Assembly: GCA_041664465.1 (NCBI GenBank) | Contig: JBAYKP010000005.1 | Coordinates: forward strand, 1-60,430 | Direction: 5' to 3' | From: Minisyncoccota bacterium | GTDB taxonomy: Bacteria > Patescibacteriota > Minisyncoccia > Phycocordibacterales > UBA9973 | DNA: 60,430 nt | In this document: positions 3,645-59,364 of the stretch, piece after piece | Numbering within the stretch: position 1 is the stretch's first letter | Layout of the letters: every line of letters begins with the position of its first letter | Notes under the pieces: generated by a model | Told to the model about the DNA's origin: nothing | Database searches by the model: none | The model's input: the letters and a program-made list of their open reading frames with translations, nothing else | Translations under genes and position numbers: made by a program

Positions 3645-4520
3645 TTATCCTGCTAAATATTTTAACAATACAAGCCCAGCGAACATAATGATACTTCCTA
3701 TTATGGTTTCTGTTTTAGGTCGATCTTTGAAGAAGATATAGCTAAACAAAAGGACAAAGAATACTTGAGTACGGAATACAGAAGTTACTAGCCCTGCCTC
3801 TCCGTTTCCCAAAGCCCAAAAAGCCAAAAAAGTGGATGCCGCCATTAAAAATCCAACTAAGATAAATGTCTTTGTATTAGATATTATCTGTGGTAGCACC
3901 ATTTTCTTTTTTGCAATTACCCAAGGAAGGAAACATATGATAATAATAATATTTTCAGTAAGGATTGCGAATGATTCACTTTGCGGAAATGTATTATTAA
4001 TTGCTAATTTATCAAATACACTAACAATTCCGATCAATGCTACTGAAATAATCATCCAAAACGAAATTTTATTTTTGAAAAGTAGTTTAAATGGTTCAAG
4101 TAATCCCTTTTTTACAGAACTGATATTTAAAACATATGCTCCGAGTAATGTAATAGTCATAGCCAAGAATTCTCCTAAAGAATATCTTTCAGATAAAATA
4201 AACATAGAGAAGATTAAAGCAAAAACAGGACTAAGGCTAATGATAGGATAAACATCGGAGAGGCTATTTTTTTGAATGATTTTATTAAAAATAATTTTTG
4301 AAACTGTATAAAAAATTACTGAAGCAATTACTCCAATGAAAAATTTATAATTTAATGCTGGAATTCCTTCTTTTATGACTAAAGGTAATATAAATGGAGT
4401 AGAAAAAAGTATCGCAGCCCAATAAAAGACTATAGGGTCGATTTTTTTAAGAGCATGTTTACTAAGGATAGTATAAATCCCAGAAATAAATGCCATTGAA
4501 AGCGCAGCATAAAACCACAT
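3645..4520 (-). CDS. EamA/DMT-family transporter
   Basis: About 10 hydrophobic helices in two similar halves, as in drug/metabolite transporter (EamA) proteins. Confidence 0.7.
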   Translation of the reverse strand: MWFYAALSMAFISGIYTILSKHALKKIDPIVFYWAAILFSTPFILPLVIKEGIPALNYKFFIGVIASVIFYTVSKIIFNKIIQKNSLSDVYPIISLSPVFALIFSMFILSERYSLGEFLAMTITLLGAYVLNISSVKKGLLEPFKLLFKNKISFWMIISVALIGIVSVFDKLAINNTFPQSESFAILTENIIIIICFLPWVIAKKKMVLPQIISNTKTFILVGFLMAASTFLAFWALGNGEAGLVTSVFRTQVFFVLLFSYIFFKDRPKTETIIGSIIMFAGLVLLKYLAG

Positions 4521-44454: not shown

Positions 44455-45630
44455 ATGAAAGATAAACAAGTAGAAAAACTTATCAAAGAAGAAGAGAAGA
44501 GACAGAAGAGTGTTGTGAACTTAATAGCTTCAGAGAACATTGTATCAGATGATGTACTTAAAGCTCTAGGCTCTAAGCTTACCAATAAATATGCCGAAGG
44601 TTACCCAGGGAAGAGATATTATGGTGGTAATCAAGTGATAGATAAAGTAGAGAATTTGGCGATTGCTCGTGCCTTGAAACTTTTTAAACTTAAACCCGAA
44701 AATTGGCACGTGAACGTCCAGCTTCTTTCAGGTAGTCCTGCGAACTTTGCACTTTACTCTGCGCTCGTTCCACTCGGTGGCAAAATAATGGGGATGAAGC
44801 TTTCTTCAGGAGGACATCTTACTCACGGGTACCCTGGTTCTATGACGGGCAAGCTTTGGAAGTCGGTGCAATTTGAACTTGATAAGAAAACAGAAGTTAT
44901 AGATTATGAAGCTCTTAAGCAATTAGCAATAGCTGAAAAGCCAAATATTATAGTTTGTGGTTTTACTGCATATCCACGCGTTGTAGATTTCAAAAAGTTC
45001 AGAGAAATTGCAGATGCAAGTGGAGCTCTTCTTCACGTAGATATGTCGCACTTTGCAGGGCTTGTAGCGGGGGAAGCTTATCCTTCACCATTTCCTTATG
45101 CTGATTCTGTGATGACTACTACGCACAAGTCACTTCGTGGTCCAAGACATGCAATACTATTTGTAAAGAAAGATGCACGTGAGTTCGATAAGAAATTAGA
45201 CAAGATGATTATCCCAGGACTCTTCGGTGGACCTCACGAGAATACTATTGCTGCGGCTGCCGTTGCTTTCCTTGAAGCTTCTAGTCCTTCATTTAAAAAG
45301 TATGCCAAGCAAGTTGTGAAGAATGCGAGAGTCTTGGCCAAAGAATTACAAAAGCTTGGTTGGCACATCATATCAGGTGGTACAGACTCACACCTTATTC
45401 TTATGGATACATGGATGGATGGCAAGGGTATACCTGGCAAGGATGCAAGTGCTAAGCTTGAGAAAGCAGGTATAATAGTGAATATGAATACAATCCCCGG
45501 CGACCCACGTGGGCCTATGGATCCTTCAGGCATCCGCCTAGGCACTTGTGCAGAAACTTCTCGTGGAAAGAAAGAGTCAGATATGGTGAAATTAGCAGTA
45601 AGAATGGATAAGATATTGAGAGGAAAGTAA
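44455..45630 (+). CDS. glyA: Serine hydroxymethyltransferase
   Basis: NLIASEN, YAEGYPGKRYYGG, TTTHKSLRGPR (PLP lysine). Confidence 0.92.
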   Translation: MKDKQVEKLIKEEEKRQKSVVNLIASENIVSDDVLKALGSKLTNKYAEGYPGKRYYGGNQVIDKVENLAIARALKLFKLKPENWHVNVQLLSGSPANFALYSALVPLGGKIMGMKLSSGGHLTHGYPGSMTGKLWKSVQFELDKKTEVIDYEALKQLAIAEKPNIIVCGFTAYPRVVDFKKFREIADASGALLHVDMSHFAGLVAGEAYPSPFPYADSVMTTTHKSLRGPRHAILFVKKDAREFDKKLDKMIIPGLFGGPHENTIAAAAVAFLEASSPSFKKYAKQVVKNARVLAKELQKLGWHIISGGTDSHLILMDTWMDGKGIPGKDASAKLEKAGIIVNMNTIPGDPRGPMDPSGIRLGTCAETSRGKKESDMVKLAVRMDKILRGK

Positions 45631-45631
45631 A

Positions 45632-46039
45632 ATGAAAATATATTTTGGAGGAGCTATAAGAGGAGGAAGAGAAGATGTCCACATATATGAACTAATCATT
45701 AAAGAATTAGGTAATTTTGGAGAAGTTCTTACAGAGCATATAGGGGATAAGAACTTATCAATTATAGGAGAAGATAAACTTCCTCAATATATTTACGAGA
45801 GAGATACAAACTTTATTAAAGAAGCAGATATTTTTATAGCAGATGTCACTACTCCATCACTTGGGGTTGGCTATGAGATTGCTTACGCAGAAAAATTAAA
45901 TAAAAAGGTTTTCTGTCTTTATAACAATACAGGAAATAAGTTAGTATCATTTATGATTATGGGGAATCAAAATTGTAAGGTTTTCCCTTATAAAAATAAA
46001 GAAGAAATTTCTGAAATAATAAAAAGTATTTTTAAATAA
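45632..46039 (+). CDS. DNPH1/Rcl-like 2'-deoxynucleoside 5'-phosphate N-hydrolase
   Basis: MKIYFGGAIRGGRED ... LTEH ... TPSLGVGYEIAYAE closely parallels the Rcl/DNPH1 motifs (IYFCGSIRGGRED, PSLGVGYE). Confidence 0.75.
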   Translation: MKIYFGGAIRGGREDVHIYELIIKELGNFGEVLTEHIGDKNLSIIGEDKLPQYIYERDTNFIKEADIFIADVTTPSLGVGYEIAYAEKLNKKVFCLYNNTGNKLVSFMIMGNQNCKVFPYKNKEEISEIIKSIFK

Positions 46040-46041
46040 TT

Positions 46042-46473
46042 ATGATTGAAAAACAAAGAGAAAAATTAAAACCATGTGTTGGTGTGATGATTTGGAAAGA
46101 AGGAAAGGTTCTTCTTGGTAAGAGAAAAGGATCTCATGGCGCAGGGGAGTATGCATTTCCTGGAGGACATTTAGAGTTTGATGAATCATTCCAAGATTGT
46201 ACGAAAAGAGAGGTTTTAGAAGAAACTGGTGTTAAAATCAAAAATTTACGATTTATGTCATTAGCAAATTTTATATTGAACGAAAATAGACAGGACATTC
46301 TAGTTTCATTTATTGCTGATTGGGAAAGTGGTGAAGCTAAAATATTAGAACTAGAAAAAAGTGATGGTTGGGAATGGTACTCACTTGATAATCTACCCTT
46401 ACCATTATTTCGTCCAACACAAATCACAGTAGATTCATTTATAACAGGCAAAAACTTTTATGATAAAGAATAA
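46042..46473 (+). CDS. NUDIX hydrolase
   Basis: Nudix box GGHLEFDESFQDCTKREVLEETGV. Confidence 0.8.
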   Translation: MIEKQREKLKPCVGVMIWKEGKVLLGKRKGSHGAGEYAFPGGHLEFDESFQDCTKREVLEETGVKIKNLRFMSLANFILNENRQDILVSFIADWESGEAKILELEKSDGWEWYSLDNLPLPLFRPTQITVDSFITGKNFYDKE

Positions 46474-47173
46474 AAAACAAAAAACAAAAGGCAAATTGAT
46501 AGTAATAGATGGGACGGATGGAAGTGGGAAGACTACGCAGTTTAATTTACTTGTTGCACATTTAAAAAAGGATGGATATAAAGTAAAGACTGTTGATTTC
46601 CCTGTGTATTATAAGAATTTTTTTGGAAAGTTTATAGGGCACTGTCTATCAGAGCAATATTACAATTGGCTCAACGTTCATCCCAAGATTGCTTCTATGG
46701 CATATGCTGCTGATAGATGGGAGTCGAGTAAAGAAATGAAAGAATGGTTAGCTAAAGGATATATTATTATTGCAAACCGCTATGTCTCAGCCAATCAGAT
46801 TCATCAAGGTGGGAAAATTAAAGATTCCAGAAAGAGAAATAATTTTATTAAATGGCTTGATCAGATGGAGCATGAAGTTTTTGGAATACCAAGACCAGAT
46901 TTAACTTTTTATTTAAACTTACCAATAAAGATAGTTTTAGAACTTATAAAAAAGCGTGATAGTAGTAAAATGCATAGAAAGTATTTAAAGAATAAAAAAG
47001 ATCTTGCCGAAAATGATGTAGACTATCAAGAGAATTCTATAAAAAGTGCCATTTGGCTTTCTAAGAATATTAAGAATTTTGTTAAAGTAGAATGTTATAA
47101 AAATAACGAAATTTTGTCTCGTGAAAATATTCACGAGATGGTTTATAAAGAAGTTAAAAAAGTATTAGGATGA
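46460..47173 (+). CDS. tmk: Thymidylate (dNMP) kinase
   Basis: P-loop IVIDGTDGSGKTTQ and ANRYVSANQIHQG. Confidence 0.8.
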   Translation: MIKNKKQKTKGKLIVIDGTDGSGKTTQFNLLVAHLKKDGYKVKTVDFPVYYKNFFGKFIGHCLSEQYYNWLNVHPKIASMAYAADRWESSKEMKEWLAKGYIIIANRYVSANQIHQGGKIKDSRKRNNFIKWLDQMEHEVFGIPRPDLTFYLNLPIKIVLELIKKRDSSKMHRKYLKNKKDLAENDVDYQENSIKSAIWLSKNIKNFVKVECYKNNEILSRENIHEMVYKEVKKVLG

Positions 47174-47592
47174 AAATCAAAATTAAAAAATTAAAAGATG
47201 AGGCGAAGTTTCCTAGCTATGCTCATCCGGGGGATGTCGGGATGGATCTATATGCTATGGAGACTGTGACTATCAAGCCCATGGAGCATTATAGATTCTT
47301 CCATGGTTTTGCAATGGAGTTCCCCGAAGGGAATGCGGGAATTATAATGGATAAGTCTAGTATTTCAAAAGCAGGGCTTATTCATATGGGGGGAGTTTTT
47401 GATGCTGGGTATAGAGGGGAATACAATACGCACCTGGTGAATCTGTCCGATAAGTCTTATACTGTAGAAGAGGGGGATAAAGTATCTCAATTAGTAATAG
47501 TGCCAGTTGCTATTGTGGAAATTGAAGAAACTGATACATTGAGTGAATCCTCTAGAGGAATGGGGGCATTTGGTTCAACAGGAAAGAAATAA
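47170..47592 (+). CDS. dut: dUTP diphosphatase
   Basis: GDVGMDLYA, GVFDAGYRGE, C-terminal RGMGAFGSTG (motif V). Confidence 0.9.
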   Translation: MKIKIKKLKDEAKFPSYAHPGDVGMDLYAMETVTIKPMEHYRFFHGFAMEFPEGNAGIIMDKSSISKAGLIHMGGVFDAGYRGEYNTHLVNLSDKSYTVEEGDKVSQLVIVPVAIVEIEETDTLSESSRGMGAFGSTGKK

Positions 47593-49307
47593 TGAAAGGA
47601 CAAATAGAAAAAATAATAAAAGAAGTTTTAAAAAGTCTTAATATAGAAGATGTGAATTTTTCTATTGAACACCCTGAGGATTTTAAGAATGGAGATTATT
47701 CTACAAACGTAGCGATGATTTGTGCCAAGCAGCTTAAAACTAATCCAAGGGAATTGGCTGAAAAAATAGTTGTTGAATTGAGGAATTTAATTTCTCCCCC
47801 TGCGAAGGGGGAGGTAGGAGGGGGTCTGATAGAAAAAGTAGAAACTGCTGGTCCGGGATTTATAAATTTCTATTTATCAAGAGAATTTTTCACTGAAAGT
47901 GTGGGTAGTATTTTGAGTAAAGGGGAAGATTGGGGGAAGAATGATAATGGTGGTAATAAAAAAGTTATTGTAGAGTATTCATCTCCGAACATTGCCAAGC
48001 CTTTCACTGTAGGGCATTTGCGTTCTACTATTATAGGGGATTCAATTGCTAGGGTTTTAACTTTTTCTGGATTTGATGTAGTGAGGGACAATCACTTAGG
48101 TGATTGGGGTACTCAGTTTGGGAAACTTATTATTGCTATAAATAAATGGGGGAATTTAGATGAAATAGAAAAAAGTGAGACCCCAATAAAATTATTGGTG
48201 GATTTGTATGTGAAGTTTCATGATGAAGCAGAGAAAGATGGAGCTCTTGAAGATGAAGCTCGCGCTGCTTTTGCTAAGCTTGAGAAGAAAGATAAAGAGG
48301 CTATAGATATTTGGAAGAGATGTATTGAAATATCAAAAAAAGAATTTGATAGGATTTATAAAAAGTTGCAGATTACTCCTTTCGATACGATGTATGGGGA
48401 AAGTTTCTTTGAAGATAAAATGGCAGTTGTGATAGATGATGTGAAAGAAAAGAATATTGGGAAAGAAAGTGAGGGTGCATTTATTGTGGAATTTGCGGAA
48501 GAGAAAAATCTTTCACCACTTTTGCTTCTCAAAAAAGATGGGTCATCTTTATATGCACTTCGTGATTTAGCTGCAGATAAATGGAGAAAGAAAGAATATG
48601 GTGATAATATAAAAATAATCAATGAAGTAGGAGCAGAGCAGACGGAATATTTTAGGCAAATTTTTGAAACAGAGGCTATGCTTGGATATTTTAAAAAGGG
48701 GGACAGGGTACATATCGCCCACGGTCTTTATCGTTTTGCAGAGGGGAAAATGAGTACCAGGAAAGGGAACGTTATTTGGCTTGAAGATATTATAAATGAA
48801 GCAGAAAAGAGAGCGGGAGATATAAATGAAGAGACGAAAGAAGTGGTGGCTATTGGCGCACTTAAATTTAATGACTTAAAGCGTGATAGTTTAAGAGATA
48901 TACTTTTCAATTGGGAAGAAATTTTGAATATAAAAGGAGATTCTGGTACATATTTACAATATACTGCTGTTCGTGCGAATTCGATTTTAAATAAAGCAAA
49001 AGATTTTAGATTAGAAACTATAAACTCTAAACTAGAACCTATCCCAGCAGAAGTTACAGATTTGGAAAAATATCTATATCAATTCCCTGAAGTCGTAGAA
49101 TATTCTTACGAGAGTTTGCAACCTCATCACATAGCTACATATCTTACAAAGCTTGCAAGTGAATTCAATACTTTCTATGGTAATACTCAGATATTAAAAG
49201 ATGAAAACAAATATATGTCATATCATTTAGATTTAATAAAAGCCTTTACCCAAACAATGAAGAACGGCCTCTGGCTCTTGGGGATTGAAATCCCAGAGAG
49301 GATGTAG
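47592..49307 (+). CDS. argS: Arginine--tRNA ligase
   Basis: SSPNIAKPFTVGHLRS (HIGH region), MSTRKG (KMSKS-like), C-terminal anticodon-binding domain. Confidence 0.92.
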   Translation: MKGQIEKIIKEVLKSLNIEDVNFSIEHPEDFKNGDYSTNVAMICAKQLKTNPRELAEKIVVELRNLISPPAKGEVGGGLIEKVETAGPGFINFYLSREFFTESVGSILSKGEDWGKNDNGGNKKVIVEYSSPNIAKPFTVGHLRSTIIGDSIARVLTFSGFDVVRDNHLGDWGTQFGKLIIAINKWGNLDEIEKSETPIKLLVDLYVKFHDEAEKDGALEDEARAAFAKLEKKDKEAIDIWKRCIEISKKEFDRIYKKLQITPFDTMYGESFFEDKMAVVIDDVKEKNIGKESEGAFIVEFAEEKNLSPLLLLKKDGSSLYALRDLAADKWRKKEYGDNIKIINEVGAEQTEYFRQIFETEAMLGYFKKGDRVHIAHGLYRFAEGKMSTRKGNVIWLEDIINEAEKRAGDINEETKEVVAIGALKFNDLKRDSLRDILFNWEEILNIKGDSGTYLQYTAVRANSILNKAKDFRLETINSKLEPIPAEVTDLEKYLYQFPEVVEYSYESLQPHHIATYLTKLASEFNTFYGNTQILKDENKYMSYHLDLIKAFTQTMKNGLWLLGIEIPERM

Positions 49308-49435: not shown

Positions 49436-51175
49436 ATGGACAAAGAATATAAAAATTTAGTACTGGGGTGTCAGAATTGTAAAAAAGATTTCACAATAGA
49501 ATCTGATGATTTTGGGTTTTATGAAAAGATGAAAGTTCCAGCTCCAACTTTTTGTCCGGAGTGTCGTTTACAAAGACGTTTAGCTTGGCGTAATGAAAGA
49601 GGTCTTCATAGTAATGAATGTGGTTTATGCAAAAAAAATATAATTTCTATTTATGATAAAGACTCAAATGTTCATCCTTATTGTGATAAATGTTGGTGGA
49701 GTGATAAATGGGATGCGATAGATTATGGAGTAGATATAGATTTATCTAAGCCATTTTTGACCCAGTTTTTTGATCTTTTCCACAGAGTTCCAGCTCCTAA
49801 TCTTTTTGCTTTTGGAACTACAATGGTTAATTCTCCTTACTGTAATATGGCTAATGACATGAAAAATTGTTATTTACTTCATGATGGAACTTTTGATGAA
49901 AATGTATTCTATGGAAGTGGGGCTTTTTTCTCGAAAGATTCACTCGATATCACTATGGTTAGAAAAGGAGAGCTTTGCTATGAATTAGTAACAGCTATAA
50001 ATTGTTATAAAACTATTTTTTCTCAGAACTGTGAAGATTGTATAGAAGTATCTTTCTCTCATGGTCTTAGGGGGTGTAATAATTGTTTTGGTTGTGTGAA
50101 TCTTCATAAAAAAAGTTATCATATTTGGAATGAACCATATTCCAAGGAGGCATATGAAGAAAAATTAAAATCTTTTAATCTAGATTCATACGAGAATATT
50201 ATTTTAATTAAGAATAAAGCAAAAGAATTTTGGAAAAAATTTCCTAAAAAATATTATTTTGGTGTTCAAAATTTGAATGTGACAGGTGATTATTTGGAAC
50301 ATTCTAAAAACTCTAAATCATGTTTTGGAGCAGCTAATTTAGAAGATTCTAAGTTTTGTTCTTTTGTTTCAAATGGACCTGTAAAAAATACTTATGATTT
50401 TACTCATTATGGTGACAATATAGAACTTATAAATGAATGCTTACAATCTGGGGATGGTATTTCTAATATTAAATGTGGTTGGGGAGTTTGGAGCAATTCT
50501 AATAATTTAAATTATTGCATTACAGTTCCTGGATTGTCATATAGTTTTGGTTGTGTTGGATTAAAGAAGAAGAAATATTGTATTTTGAATAAGCAATATA
50601 CAAAAGAAGAATACGAAGAATTATTAACCAAAATTATAGAACATATGAATAAGGTGCCTTATATTGATAGTAAGGGAATAGAATATAGATATGGAGAATT
50701 TTTCCCTATAGAATTTTCACCATTTGGATATAATGAAACTACCGCACAAGAATATTTTACTTTAACAAAAGATCAAACTATTAATCAGGGTTATAAATGG
50801 GAAGATAGAACAGAAAGAGGGTATAAGATAGATATAATGAATAAAGATATACCAGATAGTATTAAAAGTGTAGACGAATCTATCATTGGCAAGATCATAG
50901 AATGTGAACATCAAGGTGGATGTAATGAACAATGTACCGAGGCCTTTAAAATAATTCTAGACGAATTACAATTTTACAAAAGGATGAATTTGCCTATTCC
51001 TCATCTCTGTCCTAATTGTAGACATTATCAAAGATTAAAACAAAGAAATCCTTTAAAGCTTTGGCACAGGACGTGTATGAAAGAAGGATGTACTAATAAA
51101 TTTGAGACTTCATATGCACCAGATAGACCAGAGATAGTATATTGTGAGAAGTGTTATCAGAATGAAGTAATATAA
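49436..51175 (+). CDS. Cys-rich protein with duplicated terminal zinc-ribbon modules
   Basis: N-terminal FYEKMKVPAPTFCPECRLQRRL and C-terminal FYKRMNLPIPHLCPNCRHYQRL modules flank a central region with periodic Cys. Confidence 0.6.
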   Translation: MDKEYKNLVLGCQNCKKDFTIESDDFGFYEKMKVPAPTFCPECRLQRRLAWRNERGLHSNECGLCKKNIISIYDKDSNVHPYCDKCWWSDKWDAIDYGVDIDLSKPFLTQFFDLFHRVPAPNLFAFGTTMVNSPYCNMANDMKNCYLLHDGTFDENVFYGSGAFFSKDSLDITMVRKGELCYELVTAINCYKTIFSQNCEDCIEVSFSHGLRGCNNCFGCVNLHKKSYHIWNEPYSKEAYEEKLKSFNLDSYENIILIKNKAKEFWKKFPKKYYFGVQNLNVTGDYLEHSKNSKSCFGAANLEDSKFCSFVSNGPVKNTYDFTHYGDNIELINECLQSGDGISNIKCGWGVWSNSNNLNYCITVPGLSYSFGCVGLKKKKYCILNKQYTKEEYEELLTKIIEHMNKVPYIDSKGIEYRYGEFFPIEFSPFGYNETTAQEYFTLTKDQTINQGYKWEDRTERGYKIDIMNKDIPDSIKSVDESIIGKIIECEHQGGCNEQCTEAFKIILDELQFYKRMNLPIPHLCPNCRHYQRLKQRNPLKLWHRTCMKEGCTNKFETSYAPDRPEIVYCEKCYQNEVI

Positions 51176-51182
51176 AAATAAA

Positions 51183-51502
51183 AGAACCCTGCTGCTCGTT
51201 AGAACAGACAGGGTCTTTTCACTTTGATTGGGATACTTCTTGGCCACTCGGTCTAGCTTTCGCTATATGTTTCCCTTTCAAAGCTAGAATTGCTGAATCT
51301 AAATTAGGCATACGTATAACCGCGTCTGCTTGCACGTATTTCCTGACTCTTCAGTCTGACACCTAACCACCTTGGCACACCAATGTTCTCCGATCGCTCG
51401 TTATGGCTGTGTTATCCAACATGTGATTCCTTTTACTAACCTTTCAGATTTTCTAGAAAAATCTTGGCTGTAACGTCCGATTAGCGTTGACGCATAAAGT
51501 GC
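51183..51502 (-). ncRNA. Candidate structured ncRNA (unclassified, with some RNase P RNA-like strings)
   Basis: 390-nt ORF-free gap that is visibly GC-richer than its surroundings.
- TATAAT lies on the minus strand (51514-51509).
- 5' CACUUU can pair with 3' AAAGUG.
- Several local hairpins are present.
- The 3' end has a hairpin plus U-run. Confidence 0.4.
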
Positions 51503-51817: not shown

Positions 51818-51861
51818 ATTTTCTTGCAATTTTGTGATTTTCTAGGTATTCTTATATATAT

Positions 51862-52050
51862 GCAGTGAAGAGGTTATCGCCTCGGAGCATTGGGAAGAAA
51901 CATCGTGAGGCAAGACCTCACGACGAAGTAGAACCCTTTAAATGAGAAGTCCCGCGCAATTCGGTGGGTAAAAAACGAGGTGGTACCACGAGAAGAGAAA
52001 CTCGTCCTTGTATAGCAATTATTATAATTGTTGTATAAGGACGAGTTTTT
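51862..52050 (+). promoter_or_regulatory. T-box riboswitch leader of ileS (Ile specifier AUC candidate), transcription-termination type
   Basis: T-box core GGUGGUACC lies at 51978-51986 (wider motif 51977-51992).
- Antiterminator: CGAGG [UGGUACC bulge] ACGAG-AAGAGAAA-CUCGU-CCUUG.
- A competing long terminator (aaactcgtcctt..aaggacgagttt) is followed by TTTTT. Confidence 0.8.
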
Positions 52051-52086
52051 ATTTTACTTTTATTAATTAAAATTGTTTAAACATTT

Positions 52087-55000
52087 ATGAATGAAGAAAT
52101 AAAAAAATCACAATCGGCATTACGGGAAGAAGAAGTTTTAAAATTCTGGAAGGAGAATGAAATTTTCAAAAAGAGTGTGGAGAAAGATGCACCGAAGGGA
52201 AAGTATGTATTTTATGATGGACCACCTTTTGCATCAGGACTTCCTCACTATGGGCATATTCTTGGTAGTACAGTAAAGGACGTCATAGGTAGATATAAGA
52301 CTATGAGTGGATACAATGTGCCGAGACGTTGGGGTTGGGATTGTCATGGATTACCAATTGAAAATATTGTAGAGAAGGATTTAGGAATTTCTGGTAAGAA
52401 AGCTATTGAGGCACTTGGTATTGATAAATTTACCGAGCATGCTCGTAGCAAAGTCCTCACATATGTAAATGAATGGAAGAAGACAGTTGATCGTATGGGT
52501 CGCTGGGTTGATTTTGATAACTCATACAAGACGATGGATAATACTTTCATCGAAAGTGTATGGTGGGCATTAGGAGAGATGAATAAAAAGGAATTACTTT
52601 ATGAAGGAGTACGAGTTCTTGCTTATTGTCCACGATGTGAGACGCCAATAGCCAATTCTGAAATAGCTATGGATAATAGTTATAAAGATATTACTGATAT
52701 TTCCGTTTATGTTAAATTTAAAATTTTAGATGAAAAATACAAAGATACTTATCTACTTGCTTGGACGACAACTCCTTGGACATTACCAGGGAATACCGCG
52801 ATTGCTATCAATAAAGAATTGATTTATGTTTTAGTAAAAAATATTACAGAGAAAGGTGAAGAGGTATATATAGTAGCTAAAGATTTGTATGAAAATTTAC
52901 AGAGCAAATTTAATAATGGAGAAATAATAAAAGAAATAAAAGGAGAAGATTTAGTAGGTCTTTCTTATGAGCCAGTATTCCCATATTATAAAGATGAAGA
53001 AGTAGCTAGAAATCCTAATATCTGGAAAGTTTGGCATGCAGATTTTGTGACAGTAGATAAAGGGACGGGGATTGCTCACGAAGCACCAGCTTTCGGAGAG
53101 GATGATATGAACTTGGCAAAGGAGTATAATATCCCATTTATTCGTCACGTGGAACCCAATGGAGATTTCTCAAAAGAAGTGGTTGATTTTCCAAATGTAA
53201 AAGTGAAGCCCAAAGAAGATTCACAGTCTACAGATGTCTTAATCATCAAGTATTTGGCACACACTGGGGCTCTCTTTGCAAAAGAGAAAATCATTCACTC
53301 ATATCCTCACTGTTATCGTTGCGAGACGCCACTACTTTACTATGCTCTGCCATCTTGGTTTATAAATATACAAAAAGTTAAAAAAGATTTATTGAAAAAA
53401 GGTGAAGATATGAATTGGATTCCTGAGCACTTAAAAGAAGGACGTTTCAAGAATACTATGGAATCAGCTCCGGACTGGACTATATCACGCAATCGTTATT
53501 GGGCTAGTCCCTTACCTATTTGGAAGTCAGAAAGTGGTAAAATAATGGTGATAAATTCTCTTGAAGATTTAAAATCAAAAACAAAAAAGTCTGGAAATAA
53601 GTATTTTATAATGCGACATGGAGAAGCAGAAAATAATGTGCTTCGAGTTTTAAATTCTGATTTAAAAAAGGAATTTCATTTAACAGATAATGGTAAAAAA
53701 CAAGTAAAAAAAACAGCTGAAGTTTTTAATAAAGAAAAATTTGACTATATTTTTACTTCACCATTAATTCGTGCCATAGAAACCACCAATGTTTATAAAG
53801 AGGAGTCAAAGTCATCTGCGAAAATTATTGTAGATGATAGACTTAGAGAAATGGGAATGGGCAATTTTGAAGGTAAAAATGTATCTCAATATAGGTCCAT
53901 GTTCAAAAGCAGGGCAGAGGAATTAAAAGAAAGACCAGAGGGTGTTGAAAATTTTGAAAATGTGAAAAGTCGAATGATGAATTTTTTGTGTGAAATAGAA
54001 TCTAATTATACAAATAAAAATATATTAATTATCACGCATGGAGATCCGGTTGTTGCTGTAAATTCAATTATTAATAATTTTTCTATAAAACAGACTGTTG
54101 AGTTCCTAGAAAGTAATTATCCCAAAAATGCTGAAATAAGAGAAATAAATTTCACACCATTACCTCATAATCATAATTATGAACTCGATTTGCATCGCCC
54201 ATATATTGACTCTATTGTGCTTGTAGATGAAAAGGGCGAGGAATATAAAAGAATTCCAGAAGTTATTGACTGTTGGTTTGAGTCAGGGTCAATGCCTTTT
54301 GCACAAGACCACTATCCATTTGAGAATCCAGATTGGCAGGAAGACAATTTCCCAGCAGGATTTGTAGCAGAATATATAGCTCAGACGAGGACTTGGTTCT
54401 ACTATACTCACACTATATCTACTATATTATTTGGGAAGGCTCCATTTGAAAATGTAGTAACCACAGGGACGGTCCTAGCCGAAGATGGAAGTAAGATGTC
54501 AAAGTCTAAAAATAATTTCCCAGATCCTTGGCTTTTGTTCGATAAATACGGAGTTGATGCTCTCAGGTTCTATCTGATGGCTAGTACTTTGATGAAAGGG
54601 GAAGATGTAAATTTCTCTGAAAAATTAGTGCAAGAAGTCGCCAGCAAGATAATTAGTCGTTTTGACAACGTTGTAACTTTTTATGAACTATATCGTGATT
54701 CTTCACTAGAAACTAGAACCTATAAACCAGAAACTAATTTAAATGTATTAGATCAATGGATATTATCTCGTCTGCATCAATTTACTCTTGAAGTTAAAAA
54801 TGGAATGGAAATTTACGATTTATCTCTTGCTACGAAACCCTATGAATTATTCATTGAAGATCTCTCTACTTGGTATCTACGTCGTTCAAGAGACAGAATA
54901 AAGAATGGAGATATAGAAGCAAAACAAACTTTGTATTATGTTTTGAAGATGACACTTAGTCTCTTTGCTCCATTTATGCCGTTCATAGCTGAAGATATTT

Positions 55001-55566
55001 GGCAGAAATTAAGATTGGATGGAGACCAAATCAGTGTTCATCTGACAGATTTTTTCTCCAATCTTGAAATACAGAAAATAAATAATGAAATTATCAAAGA
55101 GATGGGGGAAGTTCGCGAAGTGGTGACTCTTGGATTGCAGGCCAGACAGAAAGCAGGGATTCCTGTGAGACAGCCTCTTTGTCAATTACTAATTACTAAT
55201 TACCAATTACCAAAAGAATATGAAGAGATAGTTAAAGATGAATTGAATGTAAAAGAGATTAAAATAAATAAAGGAGAAGAGAAAAAGGTAGAACTCGATA
55301 CAAATATTACAGAAGAACTTAAACAAGAAGGGAATTACAGAGAGCTTGTAAGAGCGATTCAAGATATGAGAAAGAAAGAAGGATTAAACCCAAATGATAT
55401 AATTAGTCTTGAAATTGATGCTTCGGATAAAGGTGAAGAATTTATAAATAAATGGCAAAATGAACTTCTGAAAGCAGTTGGGGCTAAGAACATACAGATT
55501 AAGGATATTTCAGGCGACAAAATAAAAATTGATAATTTAGAGTTTGCTATAAATGTGGTAAAATAG
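52087..55566 (+). CDS. ileS: Isoleucine--tRNA ligase (type 2) with an inserted histidine-phosphatase domain
   Basis: PHYGH (HIGH), WTISRNRYW, DCWFESGSMP, KMSKS. An RHG-family domain lies at about aa 500-690. Confidence 0.93.
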   Translation: MNEEIKKSQSALREEEVLKFWKENEIFKKSVEKDAPKGKYVFYDGPPFASGLPHYGHILGSTVKDVIGRYKTMSGYNVPRRWGWDCHGLPIENIVEKDLGISGKKAIEALGIDKFTEHARSKVLTYVNEWKKTVDRMGRWVDFDNSYKTMDNTFIESVWWALGEMNKKELLYEGVRVLAYCPRCETPIANSEIAMDNSYKDITDISVYVKFKILDEKYKDTYLLAWTTTPWTLPGNTAIAINKELIYVLVKNITEKGEEVYIVAKDLYENLQSKFNNGEIIKEIKGEDLVGLSYEPVFPYYKDEEVARNPNIWKVWHADFVTVDKGTGIAHEAPAFGEDDMNLAKEYNIPFIRHVEPNGDFSKEVVDFPNVKVKPKEDSQSTDVLIIKYLAHTGALFAKEKIIHSYPHCYRCETPLLYYALPSWFINIQKVKKDLLKKGEDMNWIPEHLKEGRFKNTMESAPDWTISRNRYWASPLPIWKSESGKIMVINSLEDLKSKTKKSGNKYFIMRHGEAENNVLRVLNSDLKKEFHLTDNGKKQVKKTAEVFNKEKFDYIFTSPLIRAIETTNVYKEESKSSAKIIVDDRLREMGMGNFEGKNVSQYRSMFKSRAEELKERPEGVENFENVKSRMMNFLCEIESNYTNKNILIITHGDPVVAVNSIINNFSIKQTVEFLESNYPKNAEIREINFTPLPHNHNYELDLHRPYIDSIVLVDEKGEEYKRIPEVIDCWFESGSMPFAQDHYPFENPDWQEDNFPAGFVAEYIAQTRTWFYYTHTISTILFGKAPFENVVTTGTVLAEDGSKMSKSKNNFPDPWLLFDKYGVDALRFYLMASTLMKGEDVNFSEKLVQEVASKIISRFDNVVTFYELYRDSSLETRTYKPETNLNVLDQWILSRLHQFTLEVKNGMEIYDLSLATKPYELFIEDLSTWYLRRSRDRIKNGDIEAKQTLYYVLKMTLSLFAPFMPFIAEDIWQKLRLDGDQISVHLTDFFSNLEIQKINNEIIKEMGEVREVVTLGLQARQKAGIPVRQPLCQLLITNYQLPKEYEEIVKDELNVKEIKINKGEEKKVELDTNITEELKQEGNYRELVRAIQDMRKKEGLNPNDIISLEIDASDKGEEFINKWQNELLKAVGAKNIQIKDISGDKIKIDNLEFAINVVK

Positions 55567-55573
55567 AGAGGTA

Positions 55574-56158
55574 ATGCATCATATTTATCACACCAATGGG
55601 TTTATATTAGGCTCGACAAATAAAGGCGAAGCGAATAAGATGCTCACGATATATACTCGTGAGATGGGGCTTGTGCGGGCGATGGTGCAGGGGATCAGGC
55701 TTCATAAATCAAAGCTTCGTTTTGCCCTACAAGATCTTTCATATTCAAATATTGATCTAGTTCGGGGGAAAGATATCTGGCGTGTGACTTCCGCCAAGAA
55801 TATTACTACTTTCCCTTATGCTCGTTCATCACGTCCTTCACTTCTTATAATTGCTCGCGTCAGTAAACTTATTGAGCGACTTTGTGACGGGGAAGAATCT
55901 AATGAAAAAATATTTGATGATTTTATTCAGAGTCTATATTTACTTGATGTAGAAGAAGTGTTGAGTTCTTCTCGTGAAGCACTCGAGCTTCATCTTGTAT
56001 TGCGAATAATGGATCAGCTTGGCTATATAGGAGAATTAGATATGCTTAAAGAATATCTAGGAGGAGATATTGATTTGGATAAGACGGAGCTTTTATTGAA
56101 AGAAAAACGTTCTATAATATCGCATATAAATAAAGCCTTAAATGAGAGCCAACTTTAA
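55574..56158 (+). CDS. recO: DNA repair protein RecO (short form)
   Basis: N-terminal OB fold pattern (GFILGSTNKGEANKMLTIYTREMGLVRAMVQG). No zinc-finger segment. Confidence 0.7.
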   Translation: MHHIYHTNGFILGSTNKGEANKMLTIYTREMGLVRAMVQGIRLHKSKLRFALQDLSYSNIDLVRGKDIWRVTSAKNITTFPYARSSRPSLLIIARVSKLIERLCDGEESNEKIFDDFIQSLYLLDVEEVLSSSREALELHLVLRIMDQLGYIGELDMLKEYLGGDIDLDKTELLLKEKRSIISHINKALNESQL

Positions 56159-56182: not shown

Positions 56183-58045
56183 ATGCCAGAAAGTGAGAAC
56201 AAAATAGAAGATATTAAGCGTCGTCTTTATGAACCAGAAGATCATGTAACCCACCGGACCCACGAAGGGACTCTTCATGTTATAAATCACAAAGTCGAGC
56301 CAGAATGGAAACACGAAGAAGAACCTATAAATAATATGAAAAAGCCAAGACCTTCAATTTTCAAAAAGTTTTTTATCCTCTCCATTATTTTTTTCATTAT
56401 CGCTATGGTTTTCGCTTTTTATAAATTCTCGACCAATAATTCTTCTGTCTCAAGCGACAATATAGATATCACAGTAATAGGTAACGCTTTCACTAAGGGG
56501 GGAGAAGAATTACCACTTCAAATAGAAATTGCCAATCACAATAAGGCTAGTCTAGAACTTGCCAATGTAGTCGTCTCATATCCTAATGGAGCGAGTGATA
56601 ACTTGGCGGATTATATTCGTCTACCACGTATAACCATTGGCACAATTAAACCCGGGGAAACAATCACAGAGAATATCAAAGTCACTCTTTTTGGTGATGA
56701 GAGGTCTAACCGCAGTGTAAGAATTGATTTGGAATATCATCCCCAAGGTTCAAATGCTATCTTTACGAAGAGCAAAGACTATGTAGTCAATATCAGCTCA
56801 GCTCCTCTTTCCTTGTTGGTAGATGCACCAGATACTGTGACCTCCGATCAGCCTGTGACTTTCACTGTCAAAGCGATTCTCAATACTTCACTCAAAGAAG
56901 GCAATACTGTAATGCAACTCACATATCCCAATAATTTTATTTATGAGAGTGCTGTTCCCGCACCTTCTTTCGGGAATTCTATGTGGAGTCTCGATGCTCT
57001 TAGTCTGACGAATCCTATTTCCGTTGTAGTTAAGGGGAGAATTGTAGGGCAAGACCAAGATCAACAAGTCTTTCACGTCTACGCTGGGACTACTAAACCT
57101 TCCGATAAATCTACTCTTGATATTGTATACAATTCATTACTGCACACTATTACTATTACGAAGCCTTTCATCGAAGCAACTATCATCGCCAACGATACAG
57201 CAAGTTCTGGAGATGATATAAATGTCAAAATTGATTGGTCCAACAATTTACCGAATAGGATTACAGATGGAGAAATCATTGTGAATATGGGGGGCAATGC
57301 TTTTGATCGTTCATCGGTGAATCCATCTCAAGGATTTTTTGATTCTTTGAATAATCGTATTATCTGGGACAAGAATTCTATCCCCGAATTAGCAGATATT
57401 GAGCCAGGAGGGCATGGGGAAGTTTCTTTCAGTGTGAAGTCTATCTCTCTAGTCGGTCCACAAAGTTCTGTTAGAGATCCACAAGTAACTTTTGATGTCA
57501 GTATTAAAGGCAAGCAACCATCCTTGGGCTCAACATATGCTGATGTAAATAATTTTTCAAAAAAGGTAGTAAAAATTTTATCAGATTTTCAAATTGCATC
57601 TTCTGCTTCTTATAAATCCGGGGCTCTTCCTCCTAAGGCTGAGACAGAGACTAGCTACAATGTCACTTGGACAATTTCCAACGGGACTAACTCTATCTCA
57701 GACGCTATTGCTCGAGCTGCACTTCCTATCTATGTCAAATGGGTGGGTCCTGTTTCTCAAAGAGAAAATATAACTTACAATGAGGGAACCCGAGAAGTTA
57801 TTTGGAATATAGGATCAGTCCGTGCTAATACTGGTGGGAATTATAATCGTGAAGCAGTTTTCACTATCACCCTAGCTCCTTCTCTCTCACAAGTCGGAAG
57901 CGTTCCTCAGCTTATGAAAGATTTGTTCCTTTCAGGGACGGATGTTTTCACTGGCACACTTGTTCAAAATAGAAGTGGATCTATCAATACGATGCTTTCA
58001 GGAGACCCAAACTTTCAATCTGGCTTTGAACGTGTTATAAAGTAA
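56183..58045 (+). CDS. Large membrane-anchored extracytoplasmic protein (beta-sandwich rich)
   Basis: One TM helix near aa 65-85, then about 530 aa of beta-rich sequence. Confidence 0.55.
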   Translation: MPESENKIEDIKRRLYEPEDHVTHRTHEGTLHVINHKVEPEWKHEEEPINNMKKPRPSIFKKFFILSIIFFIIAMVFAFYKFSTNNSSVSSDNIDITVIGNAFTKGGEELPLQIEIANHNKASLELANVVVSYPNGASDNLADYIRLPRITIGTIKPGETITENIKVTLFGDERSNRSVRIDLEYHPQGSNAIFTKSKDYVVNISSAPLSLLVDAPDTVTSDQPVTFTVKAILNTSLKEGNTVMQLTYPNNFIYESAVPAPSFGNSMWSLDALSLTNPISVVVKGRIVGQDQDQQVFHVYAGTTKPSDKSTLDIVYNSLLHTITITKPFIEATIIANDTASSGDDINVKIDWSNNLPNRITDGEIIVNMGGNAFDRSSVNPSQGFFDSLNNRIIWDKNSIPELADIEPGGHGEVSFSVKSISLVGPQSSVRDPQVTFDVSIKGKQPSLGSTYADVNNFSKKVVKILSDFQIASSASYKSGALPPKAETETSYNVTWTISNGTNSISDAIARAALPIYVKWVGPVSQRENITYNEGTREVIWNIGSVRANTGGNYNREAVFTITLAPSLSQVGSVPQLMKDLFLSGTDVFTGTLVQNRSGSINTMLSGDPNFQSGFERVIK

Positions 58046-58047
58046 TT

Positions 58048-59364
58048 ATGGAAAAAGATGAAAAATTAATGGAAAAGATTGTATCACTTTGTAAGAGAAG
58101 GGGTTTTATTTATCCTGGGAGTGAGATATATGGAGGGCTCGCTGGGACGTTTGACTACGGGCCATTAGGCTCCCTATTAAAAAGAAATATTGAGAAATCT
58201 TGGATAGAATATTTTGTGGAATTTAAGGAGAATATATATCTCATAGATACTCCTATATTGATGCACCCAAAAGTCTGGGAAGCGTCTGGACATGTAGCAA
58301 ATTTCGTTGACCCAGTTTCAAAATGTAAGAAATGTGGACATAGTTTTCGAACTGATCAAATTGAAGATAAAGAAGTTTGCAGAGATTGCGGAGGGAAACT
58401 TACTAGCCCTAATAATTTTAATTTAATGCTTGAAACCAAGATGGGTGCATCAGAAGAGACAGCTATTAGCACATATCTTCGCCCGGAAGAGGCTCAAAGT
58501 ATGTTCATAAATTTCAAAAATGTTTTACAATCTTTATCTCCTAAAATCCCTTTTGGTATTGCGCAAATAGGTAAAGCATTTAGAAATGAGATTACTCCTC
58601 GTGATTTCATTTATAGATTGCGTGAATTTGAAATAATGGAATTTGAATATTTTATTCATCCATCTTCTCCGTGGGAAGCTTATTTTGATAATTTCTTGTT
58701 GGAACAAAAAGAATGGCTTTCTAAAATTGGAGTTGATACTTCCAAACTTCATCCTCTTGAACATGGAGAACAAGCTAGGGCTCATTATAGTCGGAAGACA
58801 GTGGATTTGGAATTTGAATATCCATTTGGTATCAAGGAACTCACAGGTCTTTCTCATAGAGGGGATTTTGATTTGAAAAGGCATCAAGAATTCTCAGGTG
58901 AAGCAATGTGGGTATTAGATGAGGCTACAGGAGAGAAATTTATTCCTCATGTTATAGAACCTACTGTAAGTGTAGATAGAGCTATCTTGGCGACATTATG
59001 CTCTTGTTATAGAGAAGAGGGGGAGGGGGATAATGTTCGTGTTTATTTGAAATTACCTCCCGCAGTTGCTCCTTACAAAGCTTGCGTGTCTCCTTTGTTA
59101 AAGAATAAACCAGAGCTTATTACTTATGCCAAGAATGTATACGGAGAATTAAAAAAAGAATTTGGTTGGGTTGTTTGGGATGACAATGGCAACATCGGCA
59201 AACGTTATAGAAGGCAAGATGAGATAGGTACGCCTTGGTGTATAGTTATTGACTTTGATACTTTGGCTGACGACTCTGTTACCATCCGTGATCGTGATAC
59301 TGGCAAGCAAGAGAGAATCAAAAAAGAAGATATTGTGGATTATATAAAAGAGAGGATGAATTAA
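58048..59364 (+). CDS. glyQS: Glycine--tRNA ligase (alpha2 type)
   Basis: Class II motifs (FRNEITPR, GLSHRGDFDL), the CKKCGH..CRDCGG zinc-ribbon insertion, and the C-terminal anticodon-binding domain. Confidence 0.92.
   Translation: MEKDEKLMEKIVSLCKRRGFIYPGSEIYGGLAGTFDYGPLGSLLKRNIEKSWIEYFVEFKENIYLIDTPILMHPKVWEASGHVANFVDPVSKCKKCGHSFRTDQIEDKEVCRDCGGKLTSPNNFNLMLETKMGASEETAISTYLRPEEAQSMFINFKNVLQSLSPKIPFGIAQIGKAFRNEITPRDFIYRLREFEIMEFEYFIHPSSPWEAYFDNFLLEQKEWLSKIGVDTSKLHPLEHGEQARAHYSRKTVDLEFEYPFGIKELTGLSHRGDFDLKRHQEFSGEAMWVLDEATGEKFIPHVIEPTVSVDRAILATLCSCYREEGEGDNVRVYLKLPPAVAPYKACVSPLLKNKPELITYAKNVYGELKKEFGWVVWDDNGNIGKRYRRQDEIGTPWCIVIDFDTLADDSVTIRDRDTGKQERIKKEDIVDYIKERMN

Follow-up and report, generated by a model that had tools for sequence, protein, structure and literature searches.

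We analysed a window of 60,430 nt, that is the whole forward-strand stretch of contig JBAYKP010000005.1 from a Minisyncoccota bacterium, and report here on its ileS gene, which encodes an isoleucyl-tRNA synthetase (IleRS) with a histidine phosphatase (HP) domain nested inside it. The open reading frame (ORF), the inserted domain and the residues predicted to form the phosphatase active site are located as follows:

52087..55566, + strand: ileS ORF, 3480 nt, 1159 amino acids (aa), type-2 IleRS with nested phosphatase domain
53590..54159, + strand: inserted His_Phos_1/PGAM-like domain, aa 502-691, ~190 residues (Pfam, alignment to structure 8c8v)
53614..53619, + strand: R510-H511 of the RHG motif, H511 being the predicted phospho-accepting nucleophile
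53770..53772, + strand: R562, second phosphate-pocket arginine (motif SPLxR), invariant in 120 of 120 homologues
53848..53850, + strand: E588, predicted general acid, aligned to E89 of E. coli dPGM, invariant in 120 of 120 homologues
54037..54039, + strand: H651, second catalytic histidine (motif THG), invariant in 120 of 120 homologues

The insert is a complete branch-1 histidine phosphatase domain. The Pfam model His_Phos_1 (PF00300) matches aa 507-670 (nt 53605-54096) with E = 8e-32 and 110.9 bits against a gathering cutoff of 21.7. The match covers profile positions 2-166 of 194, and the insert on its own scores 116 bits. Modelled by itself with AlphaFold2 (AF2), the insert adopts the alpha/beta fold of the superfamily with a pLDDT of 90 and a pTM of 0.88, and in the AF2 model of the full-length protein it is the best-predicted part (pLDDT 84-95). 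A Foldseek search with the insert placed it at TM 0.77 and E ~1e-13 to PspA (4ij6) and PhoE (1h2e). The neighbours at TM 0.73-0.77 comprise PspA, PhoE, TIGAR, mycobacterial hydrolases, the riboflavin-pathway HFP, GpgP and CobC, all of ~200 residues, and a sequence search of the PDB returned the same set of small-molecule phosphatases. The nearest free-standing HP relatives of the insert are 32-40% identical to it and ~190-210 aa long. A first-pass annotation of the window had proposed a PGAM-like HP domain in an otherwise intact 1159-aa IleRS, and the Pfam scan that it recommended, together with the model and the structural matches, bears this out. The strings it had quoted are all found: PIWKSESGKIMVINSLEDL (aa 477-495), DLHRPYID (aa 701-708) and DCWFESGSMP (aa 728-737) in the flanks of the synthetase, and FIMRHGEAENN (aa 507-517), LTDNGKKQ (aa 532-539), TSPLIRAIETT (aa 557-567), DDRLREMGMGNFEGK (aa 583-597) and IITHGD (aa 648-653) in the HP domain. 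Its placement of ~190 extra residues at 53585-54155 was right to within a few bases of the borders given here, and one base out of frame.

Conservation was studied in the 120 best database matches (62-80% identity), which came from NCBI, JGI, ENA and Logan assemblies. R510, H511, R562, E588 and H651, plus G536 and S558, are invariant in all of them, and in a set of 39 far more diverse inserts the same catalytic residues show no or almost no variation. Across the 120 homologues the mean identity to the window protein is 0.40 for the insert, 0.79 for the N-terminal body and 0.67 for the C-terminal body. The catalytic residues are under purifying selection, and there is good support for predicting that the insert is a working phosphomonoesterase. 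In it H511 would attack a phosphate ester, giving a phospho-histidine intermediate; the phosphate would be bound by R510, R562 and H651, and E588 would serve as the general acid. A degenerate spacer, which the first-pass annotation had named as a possible refutation, is not compatible with the invariance of the five catalytic residues.

None of the NCBIfam equivalog cutoffs was reached by the insert or by its free-standing nearest relatives. For the insert we recorded the following scores: 73-78 bits for CobC (TIGR03162, cutoff 163), 58-63 bits for PspA (NF045917, cutoff 350), 35-39 bits for SixA (TIGR00249, cutoff 74.5) and 41-46 bits for GpmB (NF002901, cutoff 261). The substrate-lid region outside the phosphate pocket varies in sequence and length, and nothing in it is conserved among the homologues or the diverse inserts. 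As no equivalog cutoff is reached, the lid is variable and the dPGM residues discussed below are absent, we class the insert as a generic, probably loosely specific histidine phosphatase and not as a mutase. An identity as canonical dPGM, CobC, PspA or SixA was rejected, all cutoffs being missed and the dPGM residues lacking. The median isoelectric point (pI) is 6.2 for inserted and 6.1 for free-standing HP domains and the net charge is alike, and thus we did not see an RNA-binding signature in the inserted domains.

Around the insert the parts of a synthetase are in place:

52246..52257, + strand: HIGH signature (HYGH, aa 54-57), with H54, Y55 and G56 invariant in 74 homologues
52678..53310, + strand: CP1 editing domain (aa ~198-408; motifs WTTTPWTLP and GTGIAHEAPAFGEDD), matching the isolated IleRS editing-domain structures 1wk8 and 1wny
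53515..53589, + strand: N-terminal half of CP3 (aa 477-501: PIWKSESGKIMVINSLEDLKSKTKK), by alignment to 'WECEGCQ' of 8c8v
54160..54267, + strand: C-terminal half of CP3 (aa 692-727: PLPHNHNYELDLHRPYID...EEYKRIPEVI), by alignment to 8c8v
54493..54507, + strand: KMSKS signature (aa 803-807), invariant among homologues
54751..55563, + strand: Anticodon_1 (aa 889-1031) and C-terminal DUF5915 tRNA-binding region (aa 1067-1159), from Pfam

The window protein exceeds the cutoff of the NCBIfam model for isoleucine--tRNA ligase (TIGR00392; 846.6 bits, cutoff 621.4), and the insert breaks the match into two stretches. In a sequence search of the PDB the closest solved structure is Priestia megaterium IleRS2 (8c8v, 741 bits), followed on the IleRS2/eukaryote-like side by the yeast and Candida enzymes (666-681 bits) and the Thermus enzyme (1ile, 647 bits). 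The IleRS1 structures score lower, with 304 bits for S. aureus (1ffy) and 296 bits for Priestia IleRS1. By these scores the window enzyme is nearer to the IleRS2/eukaryote-like enzymes than to bacterial IleRS1. The models for mupirocin-resistant IleRS, MupA (NF000257) and MupB (NF000258), gave 673 and 713 bits against a cutoff of 1900 and do not apply to it. The cysteines C181/C184 and C409/C412 of the CP-core zinc site, which flank the CP1 editing domain, are kept. HIGH, the CP1 editing region (with its motifs conserved) and KMSKS are thus intact, as the first-pass annotation had stated. With its synthetase motifs intact and an Ile-specific T-box leader ahead of the gene (see below), the host protein is still the housekeeping, working IleRS of the cell, with charging of tRNAIle as its predicted activity.

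The insertion site lies in the CP3 subdomain. In the alignment to 8c8v, query residue 488 corresponds to chain residue 466 and query residue 694 to chain residue 480, so that ~205 residues of the window protein stand against ~13 of the reference. We set the net insert at aa 502-691 because the flanking 'LKxxxK' and 'PLP...HRPY' are native IleRS2 sequence. CP3 (residues 459-526 in yeast, 473-534 in Candida) is a peripheral element that follows the '...SRNRYWG' linker and leads from CP2 into the second Rossmann half. Its topology is not the same in Thermus, which has a zinc motif, Candida and S. aureus IleRS (PMC7191050, PMC7955072). The insert separates the two halves of the Cys4 zinc knuckle of Priestia and Thermus IleRS2. 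Where the knuckle has its cysteines, the window protein has S481 and G484 (53527-53538) and D714 and K716 (54226-54234). No cysteine occupies these positions in any of the 120 close homologues, but in many distant IleRSs with the insert both CxxC pairs are still there on either side of the phosphatase. The lineage of the window has lost the CP3 zinc knuckle. As the distant enzymes retain it, the phosphatase domain entered the knuckle loop and is no substitute for the knuckle. The first-pass annotation had described the site as a short linker in the Rossmann fold: a short stretch of ~13 residues is indeed replaced, while the location has to be corrected to CP3, between the knuckle halves.

The junction peptides, K-x-K-x-KKSGNKY upstream and F-x-PLPHN downstream, are better conserved than the HP domain itself, and in the AF2 models the first and last beta-strands of the insert run straight on from the two CP3 strands. 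Conserved junctions with strands following directly on them suggest that the domain is mounted fairly rigidly in IleRS. The full-length AF2 model has a pTM of only 0.54, with a poorly predicted Rossmann core and pLDDT values below 50 around HIGH and KMSKS. A Foldseek search with this model returned ordinary IleRS, LeuRS and ValRS structures only, none of which carries the insert. On the nucleotide level the GC content of the insert is 0.29-0.32, similar to the flanks and without a sharp change at the borders, and no direct or inverted repeats were found at the borders beyond chance matches in AT-rich DNA.

The insert is found far beyond the window. The survey of IleRS genes that the first-pass annotation had called for showed PF00300 in 120 of the 120 closest homologues, which, where they are named, belong to Paceibacterota, Nomurabacteria or Parcubacteria. 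We also searched with the insert only against every 50%-identity cluster representative and considered the best 150 matches. About 90 of these are IleRSs or IleRS fragments with the HP domain at the same place, and their synthetase bodies are only 40-55% identical to that of the window protein. The top match of that search, a tandem-repeat protein of 2848 aa without RHG (P0121), was set aside as an artefact. In a scan of one genome per GTDB species, queried with 13 closer insert sequences, at least 522 species representatives carry the insert, including Nomura-, Zambryskii-, Taylor- and Campbellbacteria. They also comprise the near-complete RAAC4_OD1_1 genome (locus L011), and 68 of the 80 loci that we fetched contain uninterrupted ORFs of ~1100-1250 aa. 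The HP insert in IleRS is old, vertically inherited and fixed in Paceibacteria/Parcubacteria, and related versions occur elsewhere in the candidate phyla radiation (CPR).

An assembly chimera at the domain borders, or a mobile element disrupting ileS, has practically no probability left. The reading frame is open across both junctions, and the identical architecture recurs in hundreds of independent assemblies from four data sources. We rejected misassembly, which the first-pass annotation had raised as a possible refutation, on the counts of homologues, species representatives and uninterrupted loci given above. A mobile-element insertion was rejected on the lack of border repeats, and the flank-like composition of the insert speaks against it too.

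Many insert-bearing genomes (loci L001, L005-L007, L012 and others) are titled 'uncultured Candidatus Saccharibacteria bacterium'. By similarity their inserts group with those of Paceibacteria and Nomurabacteria, and the label may be a default or mistaken.

Among the more distant proteins the HP domain occupies several other sites. In IleRS we distinguished three: site A is CP3, site B lies directly after the W-F-x-S-G motif (P0151, P0180) and site C is a loop that joins the stem-contact helix to the anticodon domain (P0151, P0180, P0137). Two sites are also used in valyl-tRNA synthetase (ValRS): the HP domain sits at the counterpart of site A in P0234 and P0271 and at that of site B in P0246 and P0273. 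The named ValRS hosts are Falkow-, Komeili- and Peregrinibacteria, and close ValRSs in Magasanik- and Buchananbacteria have no HP domain. Some IleRSs contain arrays of 2-4 HP copies (P0151, P0180, P0137, P0174 and P0153 make up the group with multiple copies or other sites). RHG is present in every copy, and one of these multi-HP enzymes is encoded on a 1.06-Mb contig. With three sites in IleRS, two in ValRS and arrays of 2-4 copies, the geometry of the HP domain relative to the synthetic site is not conserved. A neighbour-joining tree of 166 HP domains was star-like, and the number of insertion events could not be inferred from it beyond the distinct sites.

Other enzyme domains are inserted as well. 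In one IleRS (P0204) the HP domain is followed by a P-loop AAA_18/AAA_33 kinase-like domain (aa 746-869), and another (P0145) contains an IS200-like Y1 transposase domain (aa 340-461), the HP domain (aa 680-854) and a GNAT acetyltransferase (aa 935-1063). A few ValRSs (P0313, P0390) have an alpha/beta or serine hydrolase domain instead of HP. Enzyme domains seem to be inserted into CPR IleRS with particular frequency. In the window itself neither the ArgRS (571 aa) nor a class II synthetase (58048-59364, 438 aa) is unusual in length or domain content, and the insertion habit therefore does not reach them there.

Upstream of ileS we found a leader with the following elements:

51856..52055, + strand: ileS T-box leader with K-turn/GA motif (Rfam RF00230, 39.2 bits, E = 2e-7)
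51870-51883, + strand: ultrashort Stem I GAGG-UUAUCG-CCUC with the Ile codon AUC in the terminal loop (direct reading)
51974-51993, + strand: canonical T-box sequence AACGAGGUGGUACCACGAGA with UGGN bulge (direct reading)
52000-52046, + strand: intrinsic terminator, a 20-bp stem followed by a U-run, overlapping the 3' half of the antiterminator

The leader lies 75 bases 5' of the ileS ATG and folds with a z-score of -8.5. Its 39.2 bits fall short of the RF00230 gathering score of 93, because 76 Stem I positions of the model are replaced by 6 nt, and standard annotation would therefore miss it. In 23 of 80 related Paceibacteria loci ileS has the same leader in front of it; the loop reads AUC(A) there, and Stem I shows compensatory changes. 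These features identify it as a predicted Ile-specific T-box, which would tie expression of the fused protein to the charging of tRNAIle. T-box riboswitches with an ultrashort Stem I were reportedly described for actinobacterial ileS by Sherwood et al. in 2015. They resemble the window leader in the very short Stem I, the AUC specifier in the terminal loop and the canonical T-box sequence. They differ in that they use a Shine-Dalgarno sequestrator, whereas the leader in the window uses a transcription terminator and belongs to a CPR host.

Several further observations concern the surroundings of the gene. Between the upstream ORF and the leader, positions 51174-51433 are non-coding with a GC content of ~0.43 compared to ~0.30 for the genome, and their first ~40 nt resemble a terminator belonging to the upstream ORF. 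This segment is 90% identical over 267 nt to positions 3731-3994 of another fetched locus (L028), where it has the same place 5' of the ileS leader. Searches of the segment against Rfam and for tRNA or tmRNA gave no match, and its folding signal is weak (z -1.3 and -1.6). The upstream ORF (49436-51175, + strand) encodes a 579-aa protein that is rich in CxxC pairs at both ends and without a Pfam match. Further 5' (44455-49307, + strand) lies a series of genes for nucleotide salvage and translation, encoding SHMT, a nucleoside 2-deoxyribosyltransferase, a NUDIX hydrolase, thymidylate kinase, dUTPase and the ArgRS. RecO (55574-56158) is next after ileS, and at 56183-58045 (+ strand) there is a 620-aa protein with an N-terminal hydrophobic segment and without a Pfam match. 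A second HP or phosphoglycerate mutase (PGM) gene was not found within the window, which at 60 kb cannot show genome-wide absence.

The explanation that we favour, tentatively and at somewhat less than an even chance, is that the HP domain is an autonomous second active site of loose specificity, comparable to PhoE, PspA and CobC-type enzymes, with a small soluble phosphomonoester as its substrate. Its host would be a large, essential protein that is needed constitutively and offers a permissive surface loop for it. The link between IleRS and HP would then consist in co-expression, here through the tRNAIle-sensing T-box, and in stoichiometry, not in substrate channelling into the aminoacylation site, and the protein would be bifunctional like the mycobacterial fusion of RNase H and a CobC-like acid phosphatase, RnhC. 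We favour autonomy because the structural neighbours are small-molecule enzymes, the inserts share no conserved specificity pocket and both site and copy number vary. The patchy occurrence of HP among close ValRSs and the presence of other enzyme domains at comparable positions point the same way, as does a pI like that of free-standing HPs. RnhC offers a precedent for a fused HP domain that works independently of its partner. There are also points that weigh against this explanation. The HP family repeatedly entered two paralogous class Ia synthetases at sites around the catalytic core, which is not obviously random hitch-hiking and suggests a selected association with IleRS and ValRS. The N-terminal junction is more conserved than the domain, suggesting a fixed orientation rather than a loose tether. 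The phosphatase activity itself is predicted from conservation only.

In a second explanation the domain would act in cis on something that the synthetase binds or makes, with IleRS repairing or protecting its own reaction. We consider this a serious rival that is nevertheless unlikely. Candidate targets would be a blocked 3' end of tRNAIle (a 2'/3'-phosphate or pyrophosphate on A76), a phospho-residue of the synthetase, a nucleotide product or a phosphate-bearing inhibitor. Such a role is consistent with the fact that IleRS and ValRS acquired HP domains repeatedly, next to the W-F-x-S-G strand and the KMSKS region, and also with the conserved, apparently rigid junction. The lack of a conserved specificity pocket could be explained if tethering supplied the specificity. 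A phosphatase attached to an enzyme of the tRNA 3' end has a precedent in the HD domain of the E. coli CCA-adding enzyme. The companion inserts, namely nudix, P-loop AAA_18/33 kinase-like, GNAT and serine hydrolase domains, are nucleotide- or acyl-modifying, and the CP2-CP3 linker just upstream of the insert lines the pocket for the tRNA CCA end in yeast IleRS (PMC7955072). Against this, no single geometry is conserved over the varying sites and copy numbers, the HP domains are not basic and the nearest structures all act on small molecules. We know of no enzyme of the histidine phosphatase family that acts on RNA ends, which also counts against the cis role. Furthermore, conflict-driven functions are typically not as fixed and stable as the insert is in Paceibacteria, and yet in ValRS the domain is patchy. 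The narrower version, in which the synthetase binds its own tRNA or a ligand and the neighbouring domain, as a repair or protection module, removes a blocking phosphate from A76 (2'/3'-phosphate or pyrophosphate), from a synthetase modified by a kinase toxin or from a phosphorylated inhibitor, is a little less probable again. The first-pass annotation had suggested hydrolysis of Ap4A-type products or aminoacyl-adenylate analogues, inhibitor detoxification or a regulatory moonlighting activity as candidate roles, and our results point to none of these in particular. The domain might also no longer turn over substrate and instead modulate IleRS, either by sensing a phospho-ligand or as a structural prop; charging could, for instance, follow the level of a glycolytic phospho-metabolite. 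Binding of a phosphate ligand alone would equally need the invariant pocket residues, the junction is conserved, and CP3 is structurally variable with its zinc knuckle lost in the lineage of the window. We nevertheless regard this explanation as improbable: the invariance extends to both the general acid E588 and the nucleophile H511, which would not be needed for binding alone, RHG is kept in all copies of the multi-copy arrays and the many distant insert-bearing IleRSs that keep the knuckle show that HP is no structural replacement for it.

The remaining explanation is metabolic: the insert would be the phosphoglycerate mutase of the cell, a short dPGM which fills a gap in glycolysis and merely resides in IleRS. 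A glycolytic PGM gap has been described in some Parcubacteria (Jaffe et al. 2020). The best NCBIfam family for the insert is the short archaeal-type dPGM model NF038349 (dPGM_arch, 110 bits) and the short monomeric PGM of S. pombe (1fzt) is among the structural neighbours. A lack of a second HP gene in the window and fixation across a whole class would also fit a housekeeping metabolic step. However, the scores of 105.8-109.9 bits are far below the NF038349 cutoff of 225, and TIGR01258 (pgm_1) gives 38.6 bits compared to a cutoff of 81.7. In E. coli GpmA the residues that bind the second phosphate and the carboxylate are R90, Y92, K100, R116, R117 and N186. In the profile alignment to GpmA, M589, M591 and V599 occupy positions 90, 92 and 100 and the segment with R116/R117 is deleted. 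Position 653, which corresponds to N186, varies between G, I, D, S and A in the family. The tandem arrays of 2-4 copies and the copies in ValRS would be hard to explain for a mutase, and the OD1 organism RAAC4, an insert carrier, is described with an Embden-Meyerhof-Parnas pathway through to pyruvate. We therefore think it quite improbable that the insert is the missing mutase.

Aminoacyl-tRNA synthetases are among the most conserved enzymes, and new catalytic domains within their catalytic body are rare. Those synthetase insertions that are understood (CP1, INS, N2) proved to be central to fidelity. The HP domain in IleRS is fixed in a large class of uncultivated bacteria, being present in at least 522 species, and has repeatedly found its way into IleRS and ValRS, using several sites. 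Should it be only a hitch-hiking metabolic enzyme, it would show that ultra-small CPR genomes pack functions into essential proteins, and 'PGM' calls in metabolic reconstructions of CPR organisms may sit inside ileS. If the domain is coupled to the synthetase, it would represent a new kind of accessory activity in tRNA charging. As a cis module it would, together with the nudix, kinase-like, GNAT and hydrolase inserts, define CPR class Ia synthetases that carry 'maintenance' enzymes around the active site.

The phenomenon is known thinly: it is visible in databases, has been mentioned once and was never analysed. The first-pass annotation had been aware of no aminoacyl-tRNA synthetase with an embedded phosphatase. 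This does not stand, as the architecture is abundant in public databases and Kantor et al. 2013 (mBio, PMC3812714) state in one sentence that the IleRS of SR1 is split by two phosphoglycerate-mutase domains and a nudix domain. That paper gives no sites, conservation analysis or function, and leaves the single-copy insert in its own OD1 genome (RAAC4) unmentioned. In our search of the literature on IleRS or tRNA synthetases in connection with histidine phosphatase or PGM we found no study of the architecture besides this sentence. The SR1 enzyme and the window protein are alike in being CPR IleRSs interrupted in frame by domains of the PGM family (His_Phos_1), and our two-copy variants P0151, P0174 and P0180 probably correspond to the SR1 type. 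The window protein differs in that only CP3 is occupied, by one HP copy, in that a nudix domain is missing, and in belonging to the Paceibacteria/Parcubacteria side.

The classical example of a hydrolytic domain inserted in a class Ia Rossmann fold is the CP1 editing domain. Its contribution to the synthetase reaction has been demonstrated, whereas any such role of the HP domain would be a predicted one. With the free-standing phosphatases PspA/iPSP1 (4ij5/4ij6), PhoE/YhfR (1h2e/1ebb), TIGAR (3dcy/3e9c), GpgP Rv2419c (4pz9) and CobC (6e4b) the insert has in common the ~200-residue fold, at TM 0.73-0.77, and the R-H-G...R...E...H-G set. These enzymes are 21-23% identical to it, stand alone and have identified small-molecule substrates, in contrast to the nested domain of the window. 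For an IleRS with an extra enzymatic domain there is a precedent in the NCBIfam exception model ileS_w_GNAT (NF040702). The window IleRS has no GNAT domain and scores 342 bits against the cutoff of 1999, and P0145 combines HP with GNAT. A further known system is mycobacterial RnhC (Rv2228c/MSMEG_4305, NF005567), in which an HP-family domain is likewise joined covalently to a nucleic-acid enzyme, RNase HI. With 66-98 bits NF005567 ranks among the top families both for the insert and for its free-standing relatives; the 66 bits of the insert remain below the cutoff of 326. RnhC is an end-to-end fusion with another partner enzyme and not a nested insertion, and its RNase HI and CobC-like acid phosphatase domains are reported to act independently in vivo (PMC7466739).

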